Shown: piece by piece, positions 2,814 through 63,144 of the stretch
Numbering within the stretch: the stretch's first letter is position 1
How the letters are laid out: each line of letters begins with the position of its first letter
The notes under the pieces: model-generated
What the model was told of the DNA's origin: nothing
The model's database searches: none
What the model saw: only the letters and a program-made list of their open reading frames with translations
Source: Candidatus Campbellbacteria bacterium GW2011_OD1_34_28
Lineage (GTDB): Bacteria; Patescibacteriota; Minisyncoccia; Phycocordibacterales; UBA12079
Reading direction: 5' to 3'
Assembly (NCBI GenBank): GCA_001029775.1
Contig: CP011215.1
Span: 357,722-421,721 of the forward strand
Length of the DNA: 64,000 nt
Translations under genes and position numbers: made by a program

Positions 2814-3119
2814 TTAATGACGGCAATTTGCCTCCGCGCTCTTTGTTTTTGGTTTTTTTTGTTGAAGGCGAGTTTTCGTTCCGACGATATTTCCGATAAT
2901 CTCGAATCTCTCATTGGGAAAAAATTTGAAGAGAGGACCTGCTTCAGACCGTGTTTCTCTAAAACACTCACCGCAAATGTGGTCGGCAATGATAAGGGAC
3001 TCTTTTTCTTTTCCGTTACGGGTAATTTTTTTTGTAAGGAATGTTTCTCCTACAAAAAATACCTCTCCAGGCAGTATGTCACTGTATGCCTTGGTTATAA
3101 TCGTCTCGTCCATGTCCAT
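2814..3119 (-). CDS. Hypothetical small protein (101 aa) with CxxC...CxH; non-ribosomal insert within the spc operon
   Basis: Minus-strand ORF with GAGAGGTGG Shine-Dalgarno 6 nt before ATG; its own terminator hairpin; no recognised family. Confidence 0.45.
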   Translation of the reverse strand: MDMDETIITKAYSDILPGEVFFVGETFLTKKITRNGKEKESLIIADHICGECFRETRSEAGPLFKFFPNERFEIIGNIVGTKTRLQQKKPKTKSAEANCRH

Positions 3120-3317
3120 TGTCCACCTCTCGCTCCGAAGGTTAATAAAAATACTTTTATCTGTATCAAGACTATCACAAATTTTTACTTCTTCAAAACT
3201 TGCAGGGACTCGGTTCCCGCAGGTTTAGTTTTTACAAATTTTTGTTAAAAAATACCAAGATTTAAACTTGGGTAGTGATGTATAAATAAAAACTAGATTT
3301 ATGTCGTAAGTAAGATT

Positions 3318-3373
3318 AAACCAAAAAATTACGAAATTTTCACGGTCGTGAAAATTTCGTAATTTTTTGGTTT
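3318..3373. repeat. Palindromic repeat, family P (AAATTACGAAATTTTCAC-GGTCGTG-...), variant copy
   Basis: Near-perfect 50-bp palindrome; related copies at 27927-27972, 28617-28663, 47794-47845. Confidence 0.7.
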
Positions 3374-3514
3374 GGAATTTGAAATTTGAAACATTTGAAT
3401 TTTAAAATCTTAAAATTACAAAAAGTAAAAAGTTCGCACGGGAGTTTTATTGAAGTATGAATTTTTTAATTTTTGACTTTAAAAATAATTGATATTTGAG
3501 AAATAAAAAATCAC

Positions 3515-3548
3515 CCAGCAGAAGCGCTTCTGCTGGGTGATGTGGTTG
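3515..3548 (-). terminator. Minus-strand rho-independent terminator (tcacccagcagaagc-gcttctgctgggtga + T-run on minus strand)
   Basis: 14-bp perfect stem; on minus strand followed by TTTTTTATTT. Confidence 0.6.
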
Positions 3549-4092
3549 GTGTCCTCGGACGCGTTCCGAGAACCCCCAGAGGCCGGCTTTGTGCCGGTTT
3601 ATCCGTGGAGGGGAATTTCACCCCTCCTGATCGATGGTCGCCGATGTGGGGCGTGTCCTTGACCCAAAACGCAGGCAATCTGACTTGCGTCTGTCGTTGG
3701 CACATGCCGTTGGCAACCTTCCTTGCCGTCGGTATCTCCACCGGAATCATCTATCGTGGCCTGCTAGCAAGCCACAACTCCTCCGGTACCGACTTCCAGA
3801 ATCCGTCAAGACGCTTTTTGTCTTCCATGGCGTGGCGGAACCAGTCTAAAATCGCTATGCGTGGCGATTCTCGACGGGATTTTCTCGTGCGACTGGCCCA
3901 GTATTTTAGGGCCGGCCGGTCTTGGAACTTCAGCCGAAGGCTATCGGGCAGGTGGTGGTGGCCCCGGCGACGATCGAAATCCGTTCGGGTCGCGGGGGTG
4001 CAGGGGTCTGGTTGTCGGCTTTCAGCAAGGTTTTGGCGATTGCGGGATGTCCTTTGTTCATGGCGTTTTTTCCTCCTCTGTTGTGGTTGGTG
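3541..4092 (-). other. GC-rich (~58-60%) ~0.55 kb non-coding island flanked by 11-bp direct repeats TGTGGTTGGTG; candidate structured RNA or foreign insertion
   Basis: GC far above the window background. All ORFs here are R/W/P-rich nonsense in every frame. Direct repeats at 3541-3551 and 4082-4092. Minus-strand terminator abuts it. Contains a 44-codon minus-strand ORF with a GGAGGA SD. Confidence 0.4.
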
Positions 4093-8483: not shown

Positions 8484-8800
8484 TAAAAAGGTGTAAGGAA
8501 TAAGGTATAAGTAGTAAGTGGGCGGGAAATTTGCTTCGCAAATTTCCCGCCCTGTTCGTTTCTAAATTTTAATATAATTCGTCTTTGCGAGCGAAGCGAA
8601 GCAATCCACGTCGTTCGTCGTGTTTTAAAAATTATTTCATTAAAAATTGTTTATAAATTAAAAATTATAAATTAAAAATTATAAATTAAAAATTTTAACT
8701 CCTATTTTCTAAATTCTCACTACTTACCCCTCACACCTTTCTCCTTACCCCTTACTACTTAGAGTTAATATGTTATAATCCAATTCATATAATTAAACAT
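8484..8800. repeat. Composite MITE-like repeat region with ~40-bp imperfect inverted ends
   Basis: 8492-8520 is the inverted complement of 8715-8760. Interior holds the hairpin gggcgggaaatttgc-ttcg-caaatttcccgccc, repeat family A (8581-8610) and a 14-bp AT tandem repeat x3 (8650-8695). Confidence 0.45.
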
Positions 8801-10222: not shown

Positions 10223-10344
10223 TTTGATATAACGAATCCGATCCACCCGTCTTTGCGAGCGACAGCGAACTTCGGATTTTTTAGGCAAAAAATTCGGAGC
10301 AATAAATCTAGATTTGTAATTTGTAACTTACAATATAAAATCAA

Positions 10345-10635
10345 ATGAGAGAAAAAACCGCCTATGTTTATATAATGGCAAGTAAGAAAAACGGAACATT
10401 GTATACGGGCGTAACATCTAATTTAGAAAAAAGAGTTTGGGAACACAAAAATAATATTGTAAAAAGTTTTACACAAAAATACAATGTTCACAATTTAGTT
10501 TATTTTGAATTCGGAGAAAATATTTTATCTGCGATAGAAAGAGAGAAACAAATTAAAAGTGGCTCTAGAAAAAAGAAAATAGAATTGATTGAAAAAGATA
10601 ATCCTGAATGGAATGATTTATCAAAAAACTTTTGA
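10345..10635 (+). CDS. GIY-YIG nuclease family protein (96 aa)
   Basis: YVYIMAS..GTLYTGVTSNLEKRVWEHK GIY...YIG motif. Confidence 0.8.
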   Translation: MREKTAYVYIMASKKNGTLYTGVTSNLEKRVWEHKNNIVKSFTQKYNVHNLVYFEFGENILSAIEREKQIKSGSRKKKIELIEKDNPEWNDLSKNF

Positions 10636-11165
10636 TGACGTGGATCGCGTCGGCTTCGCCTCGCGAAGACGATCCGCACGAACAACGTGGACCTGCCTCT
10701 TTTCTGAAAGAAAAGCAACGACACGGCGAGGCAGGTTGTTTCATTGCGTTCGCAATGACAAATTTCTAAAAGAAATTTGTCACCTTCGTCGTCATTGCGA
10801 GCGTAGCGAAGCAATCCATCATGAACTGTTTGTCCGAAATTAATGGACGTGGACCTGCCTGCCGGCGAGGCAGGTCGCTTCGGCTTCGCCTCGCGAAGAC
10901 GACCCGCACGAACAACGTGGACCTGCCTGCCGGCAGGCAGGTCGCTTCGTCGCTTCGTTGCACTCCGCTTCTCGCGAAGACGAAGCCACGTCGTCATTGC
11001 GAGCGTAGCGAAGCAATCCAGGACGACGAACAACTCAAAATAAACGACGTGGATTGCTTCACTTCGTTCGCAAAGACGGAATTTCTCAAAACGAAATTCC
11101 GTCACCTTCGTCGTCATTGCGAGCGTAGCGAAGCAATCCATAACAACTCGGTCTTGCAAAGAAAA
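10636..11165. repeat. Dense cluster of nested palindromic repeats (families A, B, C); non-coding
   Basis: Three forward copies of cgtcgtcattgcgagcgtagcgaagcaatcca (10788, 10990, 11110) plus an inverted copy at 11045. A 48-bp unit is duplicated (10650/10880). cctgcctgccggcaggcagg palindromes. Irregular spacing. Confidence 0.75.
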
Positions 11166-11347: not shown

Positions 11348-14300
11348 ATGAGGGAAGAAATTATTTTAAATAGTAAAAAATTTCTCTCACTGAAAACTGC
11401 TGCGAGAGAAACAAACTATACCAATGACTACATTGGTCAGCTTTGTCGTTCAGGCAAAATCAATTCTCAAATGGTAGGAAAAATTCGTTTTGTGGAAGAA
11501 GATTCCTTGCTTGAATATGTTAAAAAAGCGAATGGTTTTGTAGATATAAAATATGCAGATATTGAAAATATTGCTATCAAAAATAACAAGGATCTCGGCG
11601 ATTTCTCGTCTGTACGAGATACTGATTTTGCTCATTTCCGTCAAGACAAAGCCAACAGTTTGTATGTAAACATTTTTGAAACAGTTTTCTCTAAAAAAGT
11701 AGTTCATGTCTATATCGCAATACTTGTTTTGTGTGGATTGTTTTTTGGTAGTACTTTGGACATACAAGGAGGTTTTGCAAAAATAAAAAATAAATCTGCC
11801 GAAGGATTGGCAAAAATTGTCATGGGAGCAAAAGTGGCGTCTGACAAAATTTCGGAAACGACATTAGCTGTTGCAAATGGCGAGATTGATTACGAAAAAG
11901 TTTATAAAAATTACTCAAATTTTTTAGGAGAGATGTCCGTTGATTTTGCCGAAGGTGAAGTAAAGTATTTCAAAAATGTTACTGGTGTAGGTAGCAAAGT
12001 AACCGAAGCAATTTTTAATCCAAGCGATACTTTTGTAACAGTTAAAACAGAGACAAAAAAAATTCAGGGAAGTGTAGAAGAAATAATTTTTGGTGGTGTG
12101 ATTTATTTTGAAAATCTTTCTACTAATTTAATTCGTGTAAATGAAAAAATTTCTCAAAATGGTTTTGCACAAGAAAAAAATTTGGCATTGTTGAGTCAAG
12201 ACAGTTTTGGATTTACAGAAAAATTTGCAATTACTTGGTATAGAACGATATCAGGTTTTTTTAGTTCCGCTGAAAAAATAGCCGACAGCACGGACGAAGC
12301 TGACAGCGGACAGCTAACAACCAACAGCACAGACGAAGACGACTCGTCCGTCTTTGCGAGCGATAGCGAAGTAATCCAGGAAGAAGACGAAGCCAACAGC
12401 CAACAGCCAACAGCTAACAGCACGAACCAAAACACAACCATCGTTACAAACCCAATCAGAGAAATCATAAAAGAAACCGTTGTAGAAAGAGTTATCCAAA
12501 CATCAGGCGTCACACTGGAAGATCTACAAAAACTAAACAACGAACTCCGAAGTGAAATCTACAAACTCTCATCAAATACAAATGCTCAAATCACCAACAC
12601 CTACCAAGTCATCTCTGCTACTAACAACATCGACAATCTGGGTAGTGTCACAATCACCGACTCAAACATCAGTTCCTCAAATGTCTCAGGAACAGAACTA
12701 AGCTTTACCAACGGAACAATTCAAAACCTAACTGTCACAGGCACAGCTACCTCTACATACGGTGGCCCTATTTCTGCAACCAGTGGAACATACTCTGGCA
12801 ATCTAACCGTAACAGGCAACACCACTCTAAACACTCTTACCGTATCAGGAGACACAATCTTTGACACAGACACTCTTTACATCGATTCAATCAACAACCG
12901 TGTAGGCATCGGATCAACAACACCCACAGATACTCTTTCAATAAACGGAGCAACATACCTTGCACCAATATCAGCTCCATCAATCACAACCGACAGACTT
13001 TACAACATCTCCAATGATTTATACTGGGGTGGTAATCTTTTATCAGGTTCTGCCGTTGGTAATTGGACATCCAACGGAACAGATGTTTGGAGAGCATCAG
13101 GAAATGTGGGTATCGGCACATCATCACCATCTTCAGATTACAGACTATCTGTTCAAGGTAACACTTACATCAAAGGTAATCTTAGGGTAAACGGAAATAC
13201 TACAATTTCAGATAGCGGAGAATTAACAGTCGGAGACAAAGTTATCTCAGAAGGAGAAATCGGAGTTGGAACATCTTCTCCCTATGCCAAACTATCTATC
13301 CAAGGAACAACTGTTTCCACAACCACTTTTGGTATCTATGGTTTTGCAAATCAAACACAGTCTCTCTTTGATGTATATGACAATCCTACGAATAATTTAA
13401 ATGTGTTTAGAATCACGAGTGATGGCAGCGTCGGTATCGCTACATCATCACCTTTTAGAAAGTTGAGTGTAGAAGGTAGTGCGTGGATTAGTGGAGACTT
13501 AACAGCCAACAGTTTCACTGCTACTTCTTCAATGAGCGCTCCTTACTTTACTGCAACAGACTCAAGTGCAACAAGTACTTTTGCAGGAGGCTTGGCTGTT
13601 GGAACAAACAAATTTGTTGTTGATTATTCTACGGGAAATGTGGGGGTGGGGACGGTGAGTCCGGATCAAAAATTGGATGTAAATGGCTGGGGTCGTTTTG
13701 AGGGGGCTGGGTCTACAAATCGTAGTGATTCTGGTGCAATAGAGTTTTATAACAATAATGCTTCATCTCTTAATGTGCAAGCTCAAATAAAGGGTCTACG
13801 AGGTATAGGTTCATATAATTCTGGTCAATTGGGATTTTTCACTAGACTAGCGGGTACACTTTATGAGCGAATGACACTAGATGAAAACGGCAACGTCGGC
13901 ATTGGGACGATGGTGCCGGGATATAAATTGGATATTGCTGGTTCTGTGGCAGCCCCGACGACTTTACTTGTCCAAGCAGGAGGCATAACTGAAAATACTG
14001 GGAATGCTTTTCGTGTTTATAGAAACAGAGCTTCCTCTTCTACAAACGCTCCGTTAGTAGATTTTATAAATGATGCAGCAACGGATGACCAGCCACTTTT
14101 TAGACTTCAACAAGATGCACCAGCTGATATTCTCCAAGTTTTTGATGGAGCAACTCAAGTGTTTACAATCCTAGACGGCGGCAACGTCGGGATCGGCACC
14201 ACTTCACCTCTCGCAAAACTATCTGTCAAAGGAGCAGGAACAACCACAGGCATAAACTTCCAAACAACCAATTCGGCTGACACTCCGTTGGTGACTGTTT

Positions 14301-17300
14301 TGGATAGTGGGAATGTGGGAATTGGGACGGTGAGTCCGGGAGCGAAGCTTGAAGTTTTTGGCGACATGATAATAGGAGACGTGACGAATGGAAGCGTTTT
14401 TAGATATAATCCAACCACGAACACGATTGTGAACGGTGCACATGAAAATAGTATAGGTGTTGGTTCCTCAAATTCTATAATAGCTGCAGGAGGAGCTACT
14501 GCAAGTTCTAATATCAATAGTATTGGAACTGATTCTTACGTGACTACGATTAGTGGTGGATACGATAACACAATTGGAAATGACTCTCCTGCCGCAACTA
14601 TCAGCGGGGGTGCTCACCATCGAATAGATACAGGAGGAACACATGGAACAATAGGTGGTGGATCAACCAACACCATACAGGCCGGCGGAGATTATGGTTT
14701 CATTGGAGCAGGATTGAGTAATATTGTTGGAGGCACATATGCGTTCATAGGAGCAGGAAGCAACAATGTGGCTACAGGATTTAGATCTGCCGTCATGGGA
14801 GGTTATTCTAATGATGCAACGGGTCAATATGCCACCATTCCTGGCGGTTGGGGTAATGCCGCATCGGGTGATTATTCTTTTGCTTTCGGTTATAGGGCGA
14901 ATGCTGCCGCGACTGGCGTGGTTGTATTCAAAGATTCAGTAAACGCGCAATATACGGTTAATACAACTAATATGTTTGGAGCGAATTTCACAGGTGGTTA
15001 TCAGTTGCTCGGTGGTAACGTCGGCATCGGCACCACCTCACCTTTCGCAAAACTCTCTGTCAAAGGAGCAGGAACAACCACAGGTGTAAACTTCCAAACA
15101 ACCAATTCGGCTGATACTCCGTTGGTGACTGTTTTGGATAGTGGGAATGTCGGTATTGGGACGACGAATCCTGGAGCAATGTTGGAGTTATCTTCTATAA
15201 GTATTAATGGTTCAGTTTTACGTTTATCTAATAATAATAATACAATTGCCCAAGGTGAAGAATTAGGAAGTATAGAATTTTTTAGTGGAGATAATAGTGG
15301 TTCTTACCCAGATACAGTAAAAGCAAAGATTTTATCTCTCACTGAAGATTCTGTAAGTCGTGATGGAAATCTAGTTTTCAAAACTTCACTTTTGTCTGAT
15401 GCCTCACCAGTAGAAAGAATGAGAATAAATAGTAATGGCAACGTCGGCATTGGTTCCACCTCACCTTTTGCAAAACTATCCGTCAAAGGAGCGGGAACAA
15501 CCACAGGGATAAACTTCCAAACAACCAATTCGGCTAACACTCCTTTGGTGACTGTTTTGGATAGTGGAAATGTTGGTATTGGGACGACAGCGCCTAGTGA
15601 AAAATTAGAAGTTGCTGGAAATATTTTGTTATGGAATAGTGTCAATGATAATACATTAAGATTTAAAGATAATAATGTCGCTCACGGATTAACTGACCTT
15701 GTTTCTACATATATACATACTGAATTAAGAAATGAAGATGTGTCAGCAGGAGGAACAAGACTATTGGGGGTTACTGATCAGGATCTTGCCTCAGGAATTA
15801 ATTTGTATGGAGTGTTGGGTGTGACTGACCCAACTGATACTGTTCCTGCAATTAAAATTAATGGGGCAAAGAAAAACACTACTAATGTGCAATCTCTTGG
15901 AAACTTAGAAACAGTTTTTCAGGTTCAAAATAATACTTCCCCGTTATTGACTTTATTGGGAAATGGCAACCTCGGTATCGGCACCACCTCACCTTTTGCA
16001 AAACTTTCCGTCGTCGGAGATGTTGTTGCCGACTATTTCAACGCAACTTCAACCACAGCAACATCAACATTCGCTGGCGGTTTAACAGTGGGAACAAACA
16101 AGTTGGTGGTGGATAGGAGTACGGGCAACGTCGGAATCGGGACGGCGAGTCCGAGTCAAATGTTATCAGTTGGCGCAAGCAGTCAGTTTACGGTTACTTC
16201 AGCAGGTGTCGTAACCGGACAAAATTTTGCAGTAACCAGTGGGGCTTATGTAATAGATGTCAGTAACGGTTTAAGGTTGTATTCAAATGGTGGTCTGGGA
16301 ATAAAATTTACGACTTGGGATGGCAGCTATGTTGATAGGATGGTCGTTTCAACAACAGGTAACATCGGCATCGGCACCACTTCACCTTTTGCAAAACTTT
16401 CAGTAACAGGAACCGGAACAGGCACTGGCTCGGCTTTTCAAGTTGCCGATTCTGCCAACTCACCAAAATTTACTGTTTTGGATAATGGGAATGTGGGGGT
16501 GGGGACGGTGAGTCCGACTCAAAAATTAGACGTTAATGGAAATATTCATTTAGGATCCAGCGTTGATGATTTAACAACGAGAAATATATATTTGGCCTCC
16601 AATCGTTATTTAAGCCTTACTTCTACAGGGCTAGATGTTTCGAACTGGTATGGTTCCGATGGCAGCGCTCATAAAGTTGGGTTTAATGGGAAAGAAGTAT
16701 TGGTGGTTGGATCTAACGGAATTGTTGCTATAGGCAATAATATTAATGGCGGTCCTGGTGATTACATGCCTCTTGTTTTACAGGGAAATGAATCGGGCGA
16801 TGTATTAATTAAAAGCGATCAATATCAATGGGGCGTTGATACGCGTCCAATAAGAATAATTACAGATGACCCCTATGCCAATACCGGACAGACTTTAAAT
16901 GCTGGAAATATAGTTCTTCAAACAGGAATAGGGACAAATGGAGGAGCAACAGGAATAATAAAATTTGAAATTGGTGCATCTGGTTCTGAAAAAATGCGAA
17001 TTGACACTTCTGGCAACATCGGCATCGGCACCACCACCCCATGGAGAACTCTTTCCGTAAACGGAACAGCTGCTTTCACCGGTCTAACCAACGACGGAAC
17101 AGGTTATTACGCTTGTATATCAACCAACGGAGAACTAGCCACATCAACAACCGCTTGTGGAGCATCGTCAGAAAGATTTAAAACAAACATAAATGATCTA
17201 ACATACGGTCTAGACACAGTCCTTCAACTACGCCCTGTATCTTTCAACTGGAAATCAGACTTTATCAATTCTTCTTCAACTCAAATCGGATTTATTGCAG

Positions 17301-18079
17301 AAGAAGTTGATTTGTTAATCCCAGAAGTCATCGGACACGATGACAAAGGTAACATCATGAACCTTGATTATCCAAAGTTGACGGCGGTCTTGGTAGGTGC
17401 AATGAAAGAACTTAATACAAAAATCTCGGCTATTGCTTCTTCGACCCCAATCGTCTCAACAGGAATTGTTGATTCCGTTCTATCTCATCTAGAAAGTTTG
17501 GGTGCAAAATTTGTTGACGGTATTGCTTACTTCAAAGATGTTGTCGTAAAAACTTTGACAGCAGAAAAGGTTATCACAAATGGAATTGAGATGGTGGACG
17601 AAGTAACAGGAGAAATATATTGTGTGAGAATTCAAAACGGAGCGATGGTTAATATTGCGGGAACTTGTGATACAGCTAATAGCCAACAGCCAACAGCAGA
17701 ACCTTCAAACACCACTCCTCCCACAATAACAATCACAGGCAACAACCCAGCCGTAGTAGAAATAAACAGCAACTATATTGATCTAGGTGCTACAGCAGTA
17801 GACTATCAAGGAAACTCTCTAATAGTAGATACAATAGACGCAGATACAGTAGACACAACAACAGCAGGAGAATACACAGTTACTTACACAACATTTGATG
17901 GAACACTGACTTCAACAAGTACAAGAACAGTACTTGTTGAAGATTCAACAGCTGTAACAACAGAACCAGCAACGACAACAGAGCCAACAGCAACGACAAC
18001 AAATCCTGTGGTAGAACCGACAGCTACGACGACAGATCCAGTGGTAGAACCGACAGCGACAACGACAGAGCAGATTTAA
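11348..18079 (+). CDS. Giant (2243 aa) membrane-anchored fibre-like surface protein. Order: N-terminal HTH-like segment, TM helix, many GNVGIGTTSPxAKLxV and Hep_Hag-like beta-roll repeats, peptidase-S74 intramolecular chaperone domain, C-terminal Ig-like (DUF5011-type) domain and Thr/Pro-rich tail.
   Basis: Single uninterrupted ORF. The S74 motif is SSERFKTNINDL...PVSFNWKS...GFIAEEV...PEVI...DYPKLTAVLVGAMKELN. The Ig-like motif is ITITGNNPAVVEINSNYIDLGATAVDYQGN...GEYTVTYT. Confidence 0.85.
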   Translation: MREEIILNSKKFLSLKTAARETNYTNDYIGQLCRSGKINSQMVGKIRFVEEDSLLEYVKKANGFVDIKYADIENIAIKNNKDLGDFSSVRDTDFAHFRQDKANSLYVNIFETVFSKKVVHVYIAILVLCGLFFGSTLDIQGGFAKIKNKSAEGLAKIVMGAKVASDKISETTLAVANGEIDYEKVYKNYSNFLGEMSVDFAEGEVKYFKNVTGVGSKVTEAIFNPSDTFVTVKTETKKIQGSVEEIIFGGVIYFENLSTNLIRVNEKISQNGFAQEKNLALLSQDSFGFTEKFAITWYRTISGFFSSAEKIADSTDEADSGQLTTNSTDEDDSSVFASDSEVIQEEDEANSQQPTANSTNQNTTIVTNPIREIIKETVVERVIQTSGVTLEDLQKLNNELRSEIYKLSSNTNAQITNTYQVISATNNIDNLGSVTITDSNISSSNVSGTELSFTNGTIQNLTVTGTATSTYGGPISATSGTYSGNLTVTGNTTLNTLTVSGDTIFDTDTLYIDSINNRVGIGSTTPTDTLSINGATYLAPISAPSITTDRLYNISNDLYWGGNLLSGSAVGNWTSNGTDVWRASGNVGIGTSSPSSDYRLSVQGNTYIKGNLRVNGNTTISDSGELTVGDKVISEGEIGVGTSSPYAKLSIQGTTVSTTTFGIYGFANQTQSLFDVYDNPTNNLNVFRITSDGSVGIATSSPFRKLSVEGSAWISGDLTANSFTATSSMSAPYFTATDSSATSTFAGGLAVGTNKFVVDYSTGNVGVGTVSPDQKLDVNGWGRFEGAGSTNRSDSGAIEFYNNNASSLNVQAQIKGLRGIGSYNSGQLGFFTRLAGTLYERMTLDENGNVGIGTMVPGYKLDIAGSVAAPTTLLVQAGGITENTGNAFRVYRNRASSSTNAPLVDFINDAATDDQPLFRLQQDAPADILQVFDGATQVFTILDGGNVGIGTTSPLAKLSVKGAGTTTGINFQTTNSADTPLVTVLDSGNVGIGTVSPGAKLEVFGDMIIGDVTNGSVFRYNPTTNTIVNGAHENSIGVGSSNSIIAAGGATASSNINSIGTDSYVTTISGGYDNTIGNDSPAATISGGAHHRIDTGGTHGTIGGGSTNTIQAGGDYGFIGAGLSNIVGGTYAFIGAGSNNVATGFRSAVMGGYSNDATGQYATIPGGWGNAASGDYSFAFGYRANAAATGVVVFKDSVNAQYTVNTTNMFGANFTGGYQLLGGNVGIGTTSPFAKLSVKGAGTTTGVNFQTTNSADTPLVTVLDSGNVGIGTTNPGAMLELSSISINGSVLRLSNNNNTIAQGEELGSIEFFSGDNSGSYPDTVKAKILSLTEDSVSRDGNLVFKTSLLSDASPVERMRINSNGNVGIGSTSPFAKLSVKGAGTTTGINFQTTNSANTPLVTVLDSGNVGIGTTAPSEKLEVAGNILLWNSVNDNTLRFKDNNVAHGLTDLVSTYIHTELRNEDVSAGGTRLLGVTDQDLASGINLYGVLGVTDPTDTVPAIKINGAKKNTTNVQSLGNLETVFQVQNNTSPLLTLLGNGNLGIGTTSPFAKLSVVGDVVADYFNATSTTATSTFAGGLTVGTNKLVVDRSTGNVGIGTASPSQMLSVGASSQFTVTSAGVVTGQNFAVTSGAYVIDVSNGLRLYSNGGLGIKFTTWDGSYVDRMVVSTTGNIGIGTTSPFAKLSVTGTGTGTGSAFQVADSANSPKFTVLDNGNVGVGTVSPTQKLDVNGNIHLGSSVDDLTTRNIYLASNRYLSLTSTGLDVSNWYGSDGSAHKVGFNGKEVLVVGSNGIVAIGNNINGGPGDYMPLVLQGNESGDVLIKSDQYQWGVDTRPIRIITDDPYANTGQTLNAGNIVLQTGIGTNGGATGIIKFEIGASGSEKMRIDTSGNIGIGTTTPWRTLSVNGTAAFTGLTNDGTGYYACISTNGELATSTTACGASSERFKTNINDLTYGLDTVLQLRPVSFNWKSDFINSSSTQIGFIAEEVDLLIPEVIGHDDKGNIMNLDYPKLTAVLVGAMKELNTKISAIASSTPIVSTGIVDSVLSHLESLGAKFVDGIAYFKDVVVKTLTAEKVITNGIEMVDEVTGEIYCVRIQNGAMVNIAGTCDTANSQQPTAEPSNTTPPTITITGNNPAVVEINSNYIDLGATAVDYQGNSLIVDTIDADTVDTTTAGEYTVTYTTFDGTLTSTSTRTVLVEDSTAVTTEPATTTEPTATTTNPVVEPTATTTDPVVEPTATTTEQI

Positions 18080-18084
18080 TATAA

Positions 18085-18395
18085 TCCGAATGCCTCGAAT
18101 TAGAATCCGAATGCCCCGAATTTCGAATTAATCCGAATTATTAGGAATAAAATTCGTCTTCGCGAGCGAAGCGAAGCGATCCAGAACGACGAACGAACGC
18201 CGTGGATTGCTTCGGACTTCGTCCTCGCAAAGACGGACGGAAGACGAAGTTGGGCAAAGCCCAACTTCGTCAACGAATTTTCTTTCAGAAAATTCGGATG
18301 ATTCGGCAATTCGGAGCACCTGCCTGCCGGCAGGCAGGTTAGGATATAATTTGTAGTATTCGGATTATATTAAAAAATTAAAATTTAACAAAAAA
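18085..18395. repeat. Nested palindromic repeat cluster (AATCCGAAT/ATTCGGATT arms, inverted family-A pair, family-C palindrome)
   Basis: The inverted partners are visible in the sequence. The ORFs called here run through the repeats. Confidence 0.7.
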
Positions 18396-19459: not shown

Positions 19460-19545
19460 GTTTTTAGTTTTTAGTTTTTGCGAAGCAAAATTCGTCACAC
19501 TCGTCGTCTTTGCGAACCGAAGGTGAAGCAATCCAGAAATTAATC
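19460..19545. repeat. Family-A-related repeat (tcgtcacactcgtcgtctttgcgaaccgaaggtgaagcaatccag)
   Basis: Sequence match to the repeat core. Confidence 0.6.
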
Positions 19546-24264: not shown

Positions 24265-24435
24265 TAGCAACTAGCAACTAGTTTTTAGCAAACGAATGAC
24301 GACGTGGATTGCTTCGTTACACTCGCAAAGACGGATTTTGCGAAGCAAAATCCGTCACAAATTTTCTTTGGAAATTCGTCTTTGCGAACGAAGTGAAGCA
24401 ATCCACGATAGTTTCTAAAAACTAAAAACTAATAT
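24265..24435. repeat. Inverted pair of family-A repeats flanking the hairpin gacggattttgcgaagcaaaatccgtc
   Basis: gacgtggattgcttcg...cgaagtgaagcaatccacg. Confidence 0.75.
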
Positions 24436-26699: not shown

Positions 26700-26790
26700 T
26701 TTAAGGTTAGGGTTTAGCGTATAGGAGACAAATTTTGCCAAAGGCAAAATTTGTCTTTGCGAGTGAAACGAAGCAATCCATAATCAAAAA
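26700..26790. repeat. Family-D arm, hairpin and family-A repeat
   Basis: ggttagggtttagcgtatagg...caaattttgccaaaggcaaaatttg...ttgcgagtgaaacgaagcaatcca. Confidence 0.65.
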
Positions 26791-38810: not shown

Positions 38811-38884
38811 AGTTGGTAGTTGGTAGTTGGTAGTTGGTAGTTGGTAGTTGGTAGTTGGTAGTTGGTAGTTGGTAGTTGGTAGTT
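38811..38884. repeat. Heptanucleotide microsatellite (GTTGGTA)x~10 abutting the tRNA 5' end
   Basis: Unit matches the tRNA D-loop sequence cagttggtag. Confidence 0.85.
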
Positions 38885-38957
38885 GCCATCTTAGCTCAGT
38901 TGGTAGAGCAACGGTTTTGTAAACCGTAGGTCCTCGGTTCGAATCCGAGAGATGGCT
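38885..38957 (+). tRNA. tRNA-Thr (anticodon UGU)
   Basis: Cloverleaf: acceptor gccatct/agatggc, D-arm gctc-agttggtag-agc, anticodon stem acggt/accgt with loop tttgtaa, T-arm ctcgg-ttcgaat-ccgag. Confidence 0.85.
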
Positions 38958-39147
38958 CAGAAAAAGTTTACAGTTAACAGTAAACAGTTTACAGTAACAA
39001 AAAAATCCCTGCGGGGATTTTTTGTTTGTTGCTCTAACGACTGAGCTAGCTCAGTAGGATAAAAAGCAAACTGCTTTGCTTTTTATCCGGTTTTTGCTTT
39101 AGCAAAAAATTTCCGTTATCGAGTGAAGCGAGATAGGAAATAGGTGG

Positions 39148-39181
39148 GAGAGCAACGGTTTTGTAAACCGTAGGTCCTCGG
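39148..39181 (+). other. Partial duplicate of tRNA-Thr (D-stem 3' strand through T-stem 5' strand)
   Basis: agagcaacggttttgtaaaccgtaggtcctcgg identical to the intact tRNA; remaining T-loop/acceptor piece at 39483-39498 beyond the GIY-YIG gene. Confidence 0.6.
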
Positions 39182-39224
39182 CCCGCCCAGCACTCAATTT
39201 TATTTTTTTTGATATAATTTTTGC

Positions 39225-39473
39225 ATGTACTATTTTTATGTTTTAAAAAATAATGAGAATGAATTATATTATGGTTCAACGAGTGATATCAAAAAAAGAA
39301 TTTTTGAACATAATAATAACCGCTCAATTTCTACTAAAGGAAAAACTTGGAAATTAATTTATTACGAAGCATATTTATTTGAAGATGATGCCCGTAATCG
39401 TGAGCATCAAATTAAGCATCACGGACAAGCAAAGAGGTGGTTGAAAGAGAGAATCAAAAATTCTTTGAAATAA
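39225..39473 (+). CDS. GIY-YIG nuclease family protein (82 aa) inserted in tRNA-Thr duplicate
   Basis: YYFYVLKN..ELYYGSTSDIKKRIFEHNN; flanked by inverted cccagcactcaatttt / aaattgagtgctggg. Confidence 0.8.
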   Translation: MYYFYVLKNNENELYYGSTSDIKKRIFEHNNNRSISTKGKTWKLIYYEAYLFEDDARNREHQIKHHGQAKRWLKERIKNSLK

Positions 39474-39575
39474 AATTGAGTGCTGGGTTAAAATCCGAGA
39501 GATGGCTCAGAAAAAGTTTACAGTTAACAGTAAACAGTTTACAGTAACAAAAAAATCCCTGCGGGGATTTTTTTG

Positions 39576-39790
39576 TTTTGAATGAGACGAAGTTTCGTCC
39601 GTCTTTGCGAGGTACGAAGCAATTCACGACGGACGTGGATCGCTTCACTATTGTTCGCGAAGACGGAATTTCGCAAAGCGAAATTCCGTTCGACCCGTCC
39701 GTCATTGCGAGCGGTAGCGAAGCAATCCACAAAAACTGTTTAGATTTTGTTTTTTTAGGGCTTAGTGATGTTTTCAACACATGAATCTTT
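39576..39790. repeat. Family-A repeat cluster (forward, inverted, forward copies plus the hairpin gacggaatttcgcaaagcgaaattccgt)
   Basis: Direct sequence match to the repeat consensus. Confidence 0.75.
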
Positions 39791-62283: not shown

Positions 62284-62433
62284 TTGTATTTAAAAATAAA
62301 ATAAAAAACCCCGCACGAATGCGGGGTTAGACAGACGGGGAGAGGTTCTTGTTCTCCAACCAGCTTCGTTGACGAAGGGGTTGAAATTACCCTTTTAGGG
62401 GACTCGTGGTCCCACCCTGCTGTCTTTTCGAGG

Positions 62434-62655
62434 CTACTCGTTGATCGGAGGAAACGCCTCCGCAACAAGCTTGTTCGCCATATCGGTGGCGAATTCCCGG
62501 GCCTCATCGGGGCTGATTCTCAGCTCAGCTGCCGTCGTCCCGATTTGTCGGGCCACCACGTTGGGCATCAAACTGCCGATGCCCTTTGACCGCGCCTGGT
62601 TTAAAACAAGCAGGTACGCGATCTGGTTTCTTCTTTCTTCTGTCATCTTTGCCAT
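62434..62655 (-). CDS. GC-rich (~58%) small hypothetical protein (74 aa), possible DNA-binding regulator
   Basis: GGAGG SD 7 nt before ATG. Inverted repeat TTCACGAAGGATTCGTGGAA upstream at ~62680. Minus-strand terminator ccccgcattcgtgcgggg + U-run at 62293-62316. Confidence 0.5.
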   Translation of the reverse strand: MAKMTEERRNQIAYLLVLNQARSKGIGSLMPNVVARQIGTTAAELRISPDEAREFATDMANKLVAEAFPPINE

Positions 62656-63144
62656 AGGAAACCTCCTTTTCGGCAATTTTTCCACGAATCCTTCGTGAAT
62701 AGGGTAGCAGAGAATCCTCAAACTACAATACAATTATACATCATATATTTGTATTTGTAAATGGTGTGAGTTTCATAAAATTCACAAACTTGGTTTTTGC
62801 TTAATACTTATACCTTAATCCTTAAGCCTTGGTTTCTATACCCTAACCGCTACACCCTATACCCTGAATGAGTTTTCCACAATTGACAAATCTTTTTGTT
62901 GACAAACTGTTATTTTTTAGATAAACTCTTACCCATCATATATCGGATCTAAGATTGAGTTTCGGCAGAACCCCTGATATTTATTAATAGCGCGCACATT
63001 AATAAAACCGTCCGAGGCAGAAGGATGGTCAAATTTATTTTGTTTAAGGGTGATATTAAATAAGAAAAAGTTAGAGAAACCTCTTTGAGGTGACTTTTTT
63101 GTTTTAGTATTGTCAATTTTATTAGCGAAAAAATAGAAAACATC

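Follow-up and report, generated by a model that had tools for sequence, protein, structure and literature searches.

A probable Ssn/SRM locus in Candidatus Campbellbacteria, with a small GIY-YIG nuclease gene among CGTC-tagged hairpin repeats, and a second, unrelated GIY-YIG cassette in the same stretch

Small nuclease genes that lie beside palindromic repeats raise the question of whether enzyme and repeats belong together and, if they do, in what capacity. The question is posed here by 64,000 nucleotides of Candidatus Campbellbacteria bacterium GW2011_OD1_34_28 (contig CP011215.1, positions 357,722 to 421,721; hereafter the window, in which all positions are counted from the first letter). 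This AT-rich stretch (about 33% G+C) holds exactly two open reading frames (ORFs) of the GIY-YIG nuclease family, at 10345-10635 and 39225-39473, with a GC-rich repeat cluster downstream of each. The initial annotation had noticed both ORFs with their 3' repeat clusters, an observation that we confirmed, and had proposed that they form two independent nuclease-repeat modules; we keep its terms, with module 1 for ORF 10345-10635 and its repeats and module 2 for the cassette around ORF 39225-39473 (GIY#2). We consider it highly probable, for the reading as a whole, that module 1 is an Ssn/SRM locus, in which a single-domain GIY-YIG gene (ssn) is accompanied by Ssn-related motifs (SRMs), and that module 2 is an unrelated, stem-bracketed cassette that lies near SRMs by coincidence.

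The Ssn/SRM system has been described by Chenal et al. 2025 (Nat Commun, PMC11893778). In Neisseria meningitidis, ssnA, a 94-aa single-domain GIY-YIG gene (CDD cd10448, GIY-YIG_unchar_3), is flanked by NTS (CGTCATTCCCGCGMAVGCGGGAATCYRG) and related SRMs, and Ssn modulates natural transformation; in a survey resting on RefSeq reference genomes, SRMs were found around 71% of Ssn homologues and on both sides of 42%, and four purified homologues acted on single strands only, binding the strand with the motif and cutting it directly 5' of the motif, a strand-specific cleavage that spares dsDNA and RNA being a mark of the family (PMC11893778). We observed in and around module 1 (10248-11143) the homology of the protein, the motif, their association across phyla, the architecture of the locus and polymorphism among strains, and because the Ssn homology and the association figures match the published system, we assign module 1 from its sequence as the Candidatus Campbellbacteria Ssn/SRM locus, with its CGTC hairpins as the putative SRMs of its nuclease. 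Its parts are the following.

10248-10311, plus strand: degenerate 5' SRM of the ssn unit, consisting of CGTCTTTGCGAGCGACAGCGAA, an insertion of about 30 nt and GCAATaaATCTAG, recognised by alignment with two other contexts
10345-10635, plus strand: ssn gene, for a predicted Ssn-family nuclease of 96 aa with GIY-YIG as its single domain (Pfam, SsnA homology and invariant columns)
10636-10685, minus strand: SRM unit U1, which closes the ssn unit on its 3' side in inverted orientation and is lacking in strain L174 (pattern match at 10642-10670)
10686-10822, both strands: head-to-head pair of U2 (minus) and U3 (plus) with a spacer hairpin, U2 having a nested CCTGCC...GGCAGG (sequence reading)
10846-10988, minus strand: U4 and U5, SRMs each with a nested 20-21 bp palindrome between GCGA and TCC
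10989-11143, both strands: U6 (plus), then the head-to-head pair of U7 (minus) and U8 (plus) (pattern matches at 10993, 11051 and 11113)

The 96-aa protein has a single Pfam match, to GIY-YIG (PF01541, E 3e-15), which covers residues 6-78. Its alignment with the 94-aa gonococcal SsnA orthologue by blastp gave 48% identity (E 5e-31), and a tblastn search of a 7.3-Gb collection with the window protein reached N. gonorrhoeae at E 7e-21, thereby passing the operational cut-off for Ssn homology of Chenal et al. (E below 1e-10 to Neisseria SsnA). The gonococcal orthologue was taken from two PLSDB records, NZ_CP119140.1 and NZ_CP119142.1, which are 2.17-Mb N. gonorrhoeae "plasmids" and evidently chromosomes; at this locus (L167) 16 copies of NTS lie within 1.5 kb around the sequence for the 94-aa protein. 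The columns that are invariant in a 20-sequence alignment (Y9, Y20, G22, R30, E33, H34 and E67) are all kept in the window protein, which also has the dimensions of the family, a single domain of about 94 aa without a DNA-binding extension. Among PDB entries it matched only the UPF0213 structure 1ZG2, and because this match is weak (E 1e-4) we place the protein outside the UPF0213 sister group; NCBIfam returned nothing above cut-off for either GIY-YIG protein of the window (for TIGR01453 the scores were 19.7 and 17.8, the cut-off being 56). Relatives of the 96-aa protein number in the thousands, and the best of them, at 55-75% identity, are spread over very different groups, namely Patescibacteria, Alpha-, Beta- and Gammaproteobacteria, Thermodesulfobacteriota, Treponema, Chitinophagales, Nitrospirota, Chloroflexota, Chlorobi and Opitutales. 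These comparisons indicate membership in the Ssn family of site-specific endonucleases of single-stranded DNA. The Slx1/UvrC-like and classical homing-endonuclease classes, which the initial annotation had named as established kinds, were judged not relevant to module 1, and an I-TevI-type homing endonuclease, with a catalytic domain and a C-terminal DNA-binding module, housed in a group I intron or free-standing in phage, was rejected for both proteins, which are single-domain and 82-96 aa long.

The repeats start directly 3' of the stop codon, at 10636, and extend to about 11145 (the 530-bp block), with eight units in the order - - + - - + - +. The recurrent unit reads (C/T)GTC-W-T-Y-GCGAR, a short variable segment and GCRATCC-A, typically CGTCATTGCGAGCGTAGCGAAGCAATCCA, which by these features would be a CGTC-tagged repetitive extragenic palindromic (REP) sequence and a variant SRM; its frame, CGTC followed by ATTGC...GCAAT and CCA, is paralleled by NTS (CGTCATTCCCGCG..GCGGGAATCC). 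An anchor pattern defined here, GTCWTYGCRA-N4-40-GCRATYC, which was adopted after the published SRM string had given nothing, has 15 matches in the window, on the plus strand at 8581, 10791, 10993, 11113, 18156, 19506, 24378, 26753, 39601 and 39701 and on the minus strand at 10642, 11051, 18204, 24306 and 39637, and it had no match in 97 of 100 dinucleotide shuffles. In a pool of 81 distinct units, drawn from the window and from loci related to it, an outer stem position was found to covary (T-A in 66 units, C-G in 13, discordant in 2), and the variable segment proved to be a short inner hairpin (mean 2.46 bp, versus 1.40 ± 0.08 in shuffled segments), as in GGAC-GAA-GTCC, GCCCTCAGGGC and GCGCGTAAGCGC. 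Instead of a simple palindrome, the unit thus forms a hairpin whose internal loop is conserved: five canonical pairs (ATTGC/GCAAT) are followed by the internal loop (GAG facing CGAA or CGTG), an inner stem of 2-6 bp and a 3-nt loop. The folding energies of inverted pairs are -25 to -34 kcal/mol (z -5 to -7.9), and U7/U8, whose spacer hairpin is GGAATTTC...GAAATTCC, is one of these pairs (-28.8 kcal/mol, z -7.9). Three of the eight units hold a CCTGCC...GGCAGG palindrome (20-21 bp or longer) between GCGA and TCC of the tail, and subtracting it from U4 and U5 restores GTCTTCGCGAG...GCGATCCACG. Rfam in E-value mode gave only spurious microRNA-like hairpin matches over the block, for which reason the repeats are not regarded as a curated RNA family, and a literature search with the repeat sequence as a string gave only chance primer matches.

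The coupling of nuclease and repeats, as the initial annotation had suspected, is borne out for module 1 by its relatives. Across 80 genomic loci homologous to the 96-aa protein, from many phyla, the published SRM string was found within 500 bp of the gene at 41 loci and on both sides at 31, the anchor pattern of the window type at 15, and one or the other at 56, with both sides occupied at 40. These proportions (70% and 50%) reproduce the published 71% and 42%. The density of SRMs by the published string is 1.47 per kb within 500 bp of the gene and 0.050 per kb distally, a local enrichment of about 29-fold. The nearest upstream unit is mostly on the plus strand, a median of 30 bp before the start, and the nearest downstream unit mostly on the minus strand, a median of 18 bp past the stop; this pair is the commonest arrangement (22 of 40 loci). 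An alphaproteobacterial locus (L065) has a 29-nt motif identical to that of the window. The window gene itself carries repeats on both sides, the degenerate plus-strand unit at 10248-10311 and the minus-strand unit at 10636-10685, in the NTS-ssnA-NTS arrangement.

Related genomes show this arrangement in different places. Genes for a protein identical to the 96-aa one were found in two unrelated contexts: next to gatB, in the order secY-gatB-ssn-giant ORF of the window genome (L177, L178), and inside a diversity-generating retroelement (DGR), between bAvd and the reverse transcriptase (L176, L179). The two contexts share 97.7% nucleotide identity over window positions 10305-10683, beyond which the flanks differ. 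In a third context an 84%-identical ssn lies between an orthologue of the giant ORF and adk (L168-L171), with copies of one head-to-head dimer on both sides. Common to the three contexts is a unit composed of a plus-strand SRM (CGTCTTTGCGAG...), about 35 nt, the ORF and a minus-strand SRM (...CTCGCGAAGACG). All ssn copies compared are bounded by inverted SRMs; the counterparts of 10248-10311 in the other contexts are intact plus-strand SRMs ending about 35 nt before the ATG, and L176 and L168 both keep U1 past the stop codon. Single units also vary between strains, as a genome with a 99%-identical protein in the same context (L174) is shorter by exactly one 47-bp unit 3' of the stop codon (window 10639-10685), an indel bounded by ACGTGGA direct repeats. 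Thus, the ssn unit and the monomers and dimers of its motif behave, on sequence comparison, as a population of repeats that appear to be gained, lost and relocated, and these data fit transposition and recombination between dispersed repeats alike. The DGR-borne ssn and its SRMs (L176 2343-5600, and L179) adjoin a target gene with an Lcl_C domain, and further SRMs lie around them.

By analogy with the purified homologues, the window Ssn would be expected to bind its motif solely in single-stranded DNA and on the CGTC strand only, with its nick falling a few nucleotides away from the CGTC tag, on the 5' side. Its gene lies between inverted motifs, plus-strand upstream and minus-strand right after the stop. 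Of the capacities that the initial annotation had envisaged for the coupling, those of cleavage target and of part of the same element are favoured for module 1 by its Ssn homology, by the motifs flanking its relatives and by the biochemistry of the four homologues (PMC11893778), and neither holds for module 2. The role in Campbellbacteria may be control of incoming or replicative single-stranded DNA, mobility, or both, and the cleavage chemistry is presumed to follow the published one.

Several points weigh against this assignment. The published SRM string, HGTCWYN(0-2)YYVSBRHN(0-5)WNVSBRGN(0-2)RNCYNB, has 0 matches in the window; it does match the NTS control sequence, and it misses the window motif because the stem starts with TTGCGAG, which breaks the YY positions of the string. 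The window motif would accordingly count as an SRM variant by our own definition. The single unit folds weakly (-2.7 kcal/mol, z about 0, in a DNA nearest-neighbour model, compared with -11.2 kcal/mol for Neisseria NTS), in the window copy the SRM at the 5' end is degenerate and contains an insertion, the biological role in the source paper is known for Neisseria only, and the cleavage data come from four homologues outside Patescibacteria. On the side of likeness stand the single-domain protein of about 95 aa with its 48% identity to the gonococcal orthologue, the position of the gene between oriented hairpin repeats with the frame CGTCATT...AATCC, and repeats that are both dispersed and clustered elsewhere in the genome, in an association that spans phyla. 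Module 1 differs from the published cases in its host, a member of Candidatus Campbellbacteria ("Patescibacteria" and "Candidate Phyla" do not occur in the text of PMC11893778), and in its motif, whose stem TTGCGAG...GAAGCAA with internal loop and short variable inner hairpin is a weak palindrome as a monomer. The coupling of nuclease and repeats is real, and had already been described and biochemically tested in 2025; what our analysis adds is that the Ssn/SRM system reaches the Candidate Phyla Radiation (CPR), that a motif variant is missed by the published search string, for which reason published censuses probably undercount the system, that within one clade ssn is bounded by inverted motifs in at least three genomic contexts, and that single repeat units come and go between strains.

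SRM units were also found away from either GIY-YIG gene, at six places (8581, 12350, 18156/18204, 19506, 24306/24378 and 26753). The initial annotation had regarded repeat clusters distant from such genes as a reason to abandon the coupling; this does not discriminate, because genome-wide dispersal of the motifs is expected of an Ssn/SRM system. These units, and a palindrome near one of them, are as follows.

8581-8607, plus strand: dispersed single SRM (pattern match)
12350-12378, plus strand: near-complete SRM, in frame within a 2243-aa surface-protein ORF (11348-18079)
18156-18234, both strands: tail-to-tail SRM pair, 3' of the giant ORF (pattern match and folding)
18319-18338, strandless: 20-bp perfect palindrome CCTGCCTGCCGGCAGGCAGG (insertion relative to two related strains)
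19506-19534, plus strand: dispersed single SRM (same site in a relative with an 87%-identical GAPDH)
24306-24404, both strands: head-to-head SRM pair, REPIN-like (-34.1 kcal/mol, z -7.9)
26753-26779, plus strand: dispersed single SRM (pattern match)

The SRM at 12350-12378 has one mismatch, falls in an acidic linker and encodes SVFASDSEVIQ. All SRMs outside inverted pairs (8581, 10248, 12350, 19506, 26753 and 39601) are on the plus strand, in line with nearly all genes and with the positive GC skew, and they are too few to separate effects of transcription from those of replication; no SRM occurs in the 40-64 kb part of the window. The palindrome CCTGCCTGCCGGCAGGCAGG at 18319 is a clean insertion relative to the two strains, without target duplication, and three copies or variants of it are found in SRM tails after ssn (10692-10734, 10854-10874 and 10922-10941); it appears to be a second mobile palindrome, smaller still.

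The alternative that survives best accepts the identity of module 1 and differs on its purpose, which would be that of a selfish element rather than a host function: SRM-ssn-SRM would be an autonomous mobile element, with Ssn as its transposase or nickase and the monomers and dimers as non-autonomous derivatives resembling REPINs or miniature transposable elements with inverted repeats (MITEs). We regard this as possible and yet unlikely. The occurrence of ssn in three contexts with similarity ending outside the inverted SRMs, the dominance of the plus/minus arrangement across phyla, the clean single-unit indels between strains, the in-frame SRM inside a gene, and the 55-72% protein identity across phyla with many copies on short contigs all speak for it, as do the report of CGTC REPs without a transposase (PMC3733652) and the resemblance of Ssn/SRM to insertion sequences noted by Chenal et al. 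(PMC11893778). However, neither a target-site duplication nor a clean empty site was found for the whole ssn unit, slippage or recombination between the ACGTGGA direct repeats explains the 47-bp indel equally well, and the gene may be relocated passively by recombination between dispersed repeat clusters. The SRM at 19506, conserved in the relative with an 87%-identical GAPDH, looks old rather than recently inserted; in an 88% relative the neighbourhood is a different one, and the GAPDH loci of relatives yielded no clean empty site of a single SRM. GIY-YIG enzymes are not known to carry out strand transfer, which also counts against a mobile element. More specifically, the ssn unit bounded by inverted SRMs might be an active transposon whose GIY-YIG protein of roughly 95 aa nicks each strand just outside the CGTC terminus in single-stranded DNA, with the CGTC REPs as its progeny, a proposal that we consider doubtful; if true, it would supply the "missing transposase" of the CGTC REPs and define a GIY-YIG-based class of prokaryotic DNA transposons moving among Campbellbacteria genomes. 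The multiple contexts and the turnover of units bear in any case on whether, and by what, CGTC repeats are mobilised (PMC3733652, PMC11893778).

Comparison with known repeat families places the window repeats close to the CGTC-tagged REPs of Di Nocera et al. 2013 (PMC3733652), a group with Neisseria dRS3 and Rickettsia RPE-4 and RPE-6 among its members. Those REPs are defined by a CGTC tag, a stem opening with A-T pairs and a CCA tail, occur mostly as head-to-head dimers and "apparently lack a dedicated transposase". The window units likewise have CGTC or TGTC before a stem that opens with A-T pairs and AATCCA after it, form head-to-head pairs (11051/11113, 24306/24378 and 39637/39701) besides one tail-to-tail pair (18156/18204), and occasionally lie in frame inside genes, the SRM at 12350-12378 thereby resembling the Rickettsia RPE insertions. 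In contrast, the published stem, which opens with two A-T pairs, is 8-9 bp with a loop of 4-5 nt, whereas the window stem is 5 bp with an internal loop, and the associated enzyme, a GIY-YIG gene here and in Chenal et al., has no counterpart in PMC3733652. REP or REPIN sequences with their RAYT (REPtrons) are similar in having one small nuclease gene amid the hairpin repeats that it recognises, inverted dimers scattered between genes and recognition of single-stranded hairpins, but there the enzyme has an HUH/Y1 fold rather than GIY-YIG, the tag is GTAG rather than CGTC, and transposition of Ssn/SRM is hypothetical.

We turn to module 2, whose surroundings comprise the following features.

38885-38958, plus strand: intact tRNA-Thr(UGU) gene, in which the site occupied in the pseudo-copy is "empty"
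39149-39181, plus strand: tRNA-Thr fragment, from the 3' side of the D-stem to the 5' side of the T-stem, with the acceptor 5' strand missing
39186-39487, plus strand: stem-bracketed GIY-YIG cassette, with arms CCCAGCACTCAATTTT (39186-39201) and AAAATTGAGTGCTGGG (39472-39487) around ORF 39225-39473
39488-39573, plus strand: tRNA-Thr 3' fragment, duplicated downstream segment and terminator (direct repeat D10)
39601-39728, both strands: SRM cluster of a single plus-strand unit and a head-to-head pair (dimer -27 kcal/mol, z -5.1)

The 82-aa protein of module 2, encoded on the plus strand, matches Pfam GIY-YIG only (E 1.5e-12). The comparison of the two window proteins that the initial annotation had called for gave 36% identity, and their relatives differ; against SsnA the 82-aa protein has 29% identity (E 6e-8, pairwise), and its family is confined to Patescibacteria. 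A second, truncated copy of tRNA-Thr has its T-loop split by the cassette, the duplicated parts being 39149-39181 and 39488-39573 (96% identity over 94 nt), of which the 3' part duplicates 38930-39023; the fragment at 39149-39181 was called by neither ARAGORN nor Rfam, which at gathering threshold reported two tRNAs only in the whole window. The adjacency of repeats claimed for both ORFs is accordingly strict for module 1, where the block begins right after the stop codon, and looser for module 2, where 102 nt, with the tRNA 3' fragment and the terminator, separate the ORF from the three-unit SRM cluster beyond.

That both GIY-YIG proteins act on the repeats as two independent modules is very improbable. 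Both ORFs do have an SRM cluster in the downstream intergenic region, and the two proteins are distantly related, but relatives of the 82-aa protein have no SRMs, with 0 in 255 kb around 80 metagenomic loci (found with a query alignment of 10 sequences) and none in five further loci (L081-L084 and L086), as opposed to 56 of 80 loci for the 96-aa protein; moreover, the tRNA fragment and terminator stand between ORF 2 and the cluster, and ORF 2 belongs to a family of rRNA-insertion cassettes. An SRM neighbour is in itself unremarkable, because about 8 of the roughly 58 intergenic gaps of the window carry SRMs, which gives a chance expectation of about 0.14. The proposal of two nuclease-repeat modules was thus wrong for the second gene, and its closeness to SRMs is coincidental.

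Module 2 is instead a GIY-YIG ORF within a 16-bp stem, one of a Patescibacteria-restricted family of cassettes usually situated at helix tips of 23S or 16S rRNA. An inverted repeat of at least 14 nt (median 19 nt) brackets the ORF in 71 of 78 loci and in none of 78 shuffled controls, and its arms vary while staying complementary (CCCAGCACTCAA, CCCCGCACTAAC, CCGGCACTCAAC and CCCCGCCTCTAAATC); such covarying arms would fit an RNA stem, for example an RNase III processing site. rRNA homology lies within 200 nt on both sides at 39 of 84 loci, at a few recurrent 23S sites, and by Rfam the 23S genes of relatives span the cassette. The recurrent 23S positions (L087-L166 and L081) are, in L103 coordinates, about 180-236, 1546 and 2440, and some cassettes are near the 16S 5' end. 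Homing-endonuclease-encoding insertion sequences in CPR rRNA genes, among which GIY-YIG ORFs are sparse, have been described by Tsurumaki et al. 2024 (PMC11270868), in whose text "tRNA" and "inverted repeat" do not occur. Like these and the classical 23S rRNA intervening sequences, the relatives of module 2 have recurrent 23S/16S sites and one small endonuclease-family ORF; unlike them, the window copy lies in a tRNA-Thr pseudo-copy rather than in rRNA, and the element is about 300 bp with its ORF closed by a covarying stem of 14-24 bp. No published description of the cassette was found, the literature not having been searched for it specifically.

The cassette also adjoins a partial duplicate of its target, namely the tRNA-Thr 3' part in the window (39149-39573), the 5' half of a tRNA followed by the intact tRNA in L083 (about 2850-3340), and the initial 39 nt of the GAPDH gene, with the complete gene after them, in L180 (about 2150-2500), which suggests that its mode of insertion may preserve an intact copy of an essential target. 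It constitutes a separate lead and occupies rRNA helix tips, a tRNA T-loop and the 5' end of a protein gene, each with partial target duplication. Around the tRNA-Thr locus, about 11 tandem GTTGGTA heptamers (38811-38884) run into the tRNA-Thr 5' end, the heptamer being part of the D-arm of tRNA-Thr itself (cAGTTGGTAgagc), and a minus-strand fragment at 39030-39055, between the two tRNA-Thr copies, resembles the 5' acceptor and D-arm of another tRNA (GAGCTAGCTCAGTCGTTAGAGCAA); this fragment suggests repeated rearrangement at this locus.

Finally, a reading of the repeats as ordinary terminators or mRNA stabilisers of the REP kind, whose position beside a GIY-YIG gene has no functional meaning, is hardly credible. 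For it speak the intergenic position of most units 3' of genes, the very stable hairpins of the dimers and seven other repeat-bearing sites (six intergenic, one inside a gene) that have no nuclease gene. Against it, the local enrichment of about 29-fold recurs around homologues in many phyla, binding and cleavage are published for four homologues (PMC11893778), and no intrinsic-terminator-like site was found in the repeat block after ssn.

Two GC-rich islands elsewhere in the window, at 3541-4075 and 62420-62660, were considered as members of the repeat family and rejected as not belonging to it. The first is a 530-bp island of 45-56% G+C in a genome of 33% G+C, in which neither strand has a clean long ORF and Rfam gave no match up to an E-value of 1; it is bounded by a strong hairpin (3513-3540) and has a minus-strand Shine-Dalgarno/ATG-like signal near 4062. 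The second, an islet of 54% G+C at 62434-62655 on the minus strand, encodes a protein of about 74 aa (MAKMTEERRNQIAYLLV...) and looks foreign to the genome.

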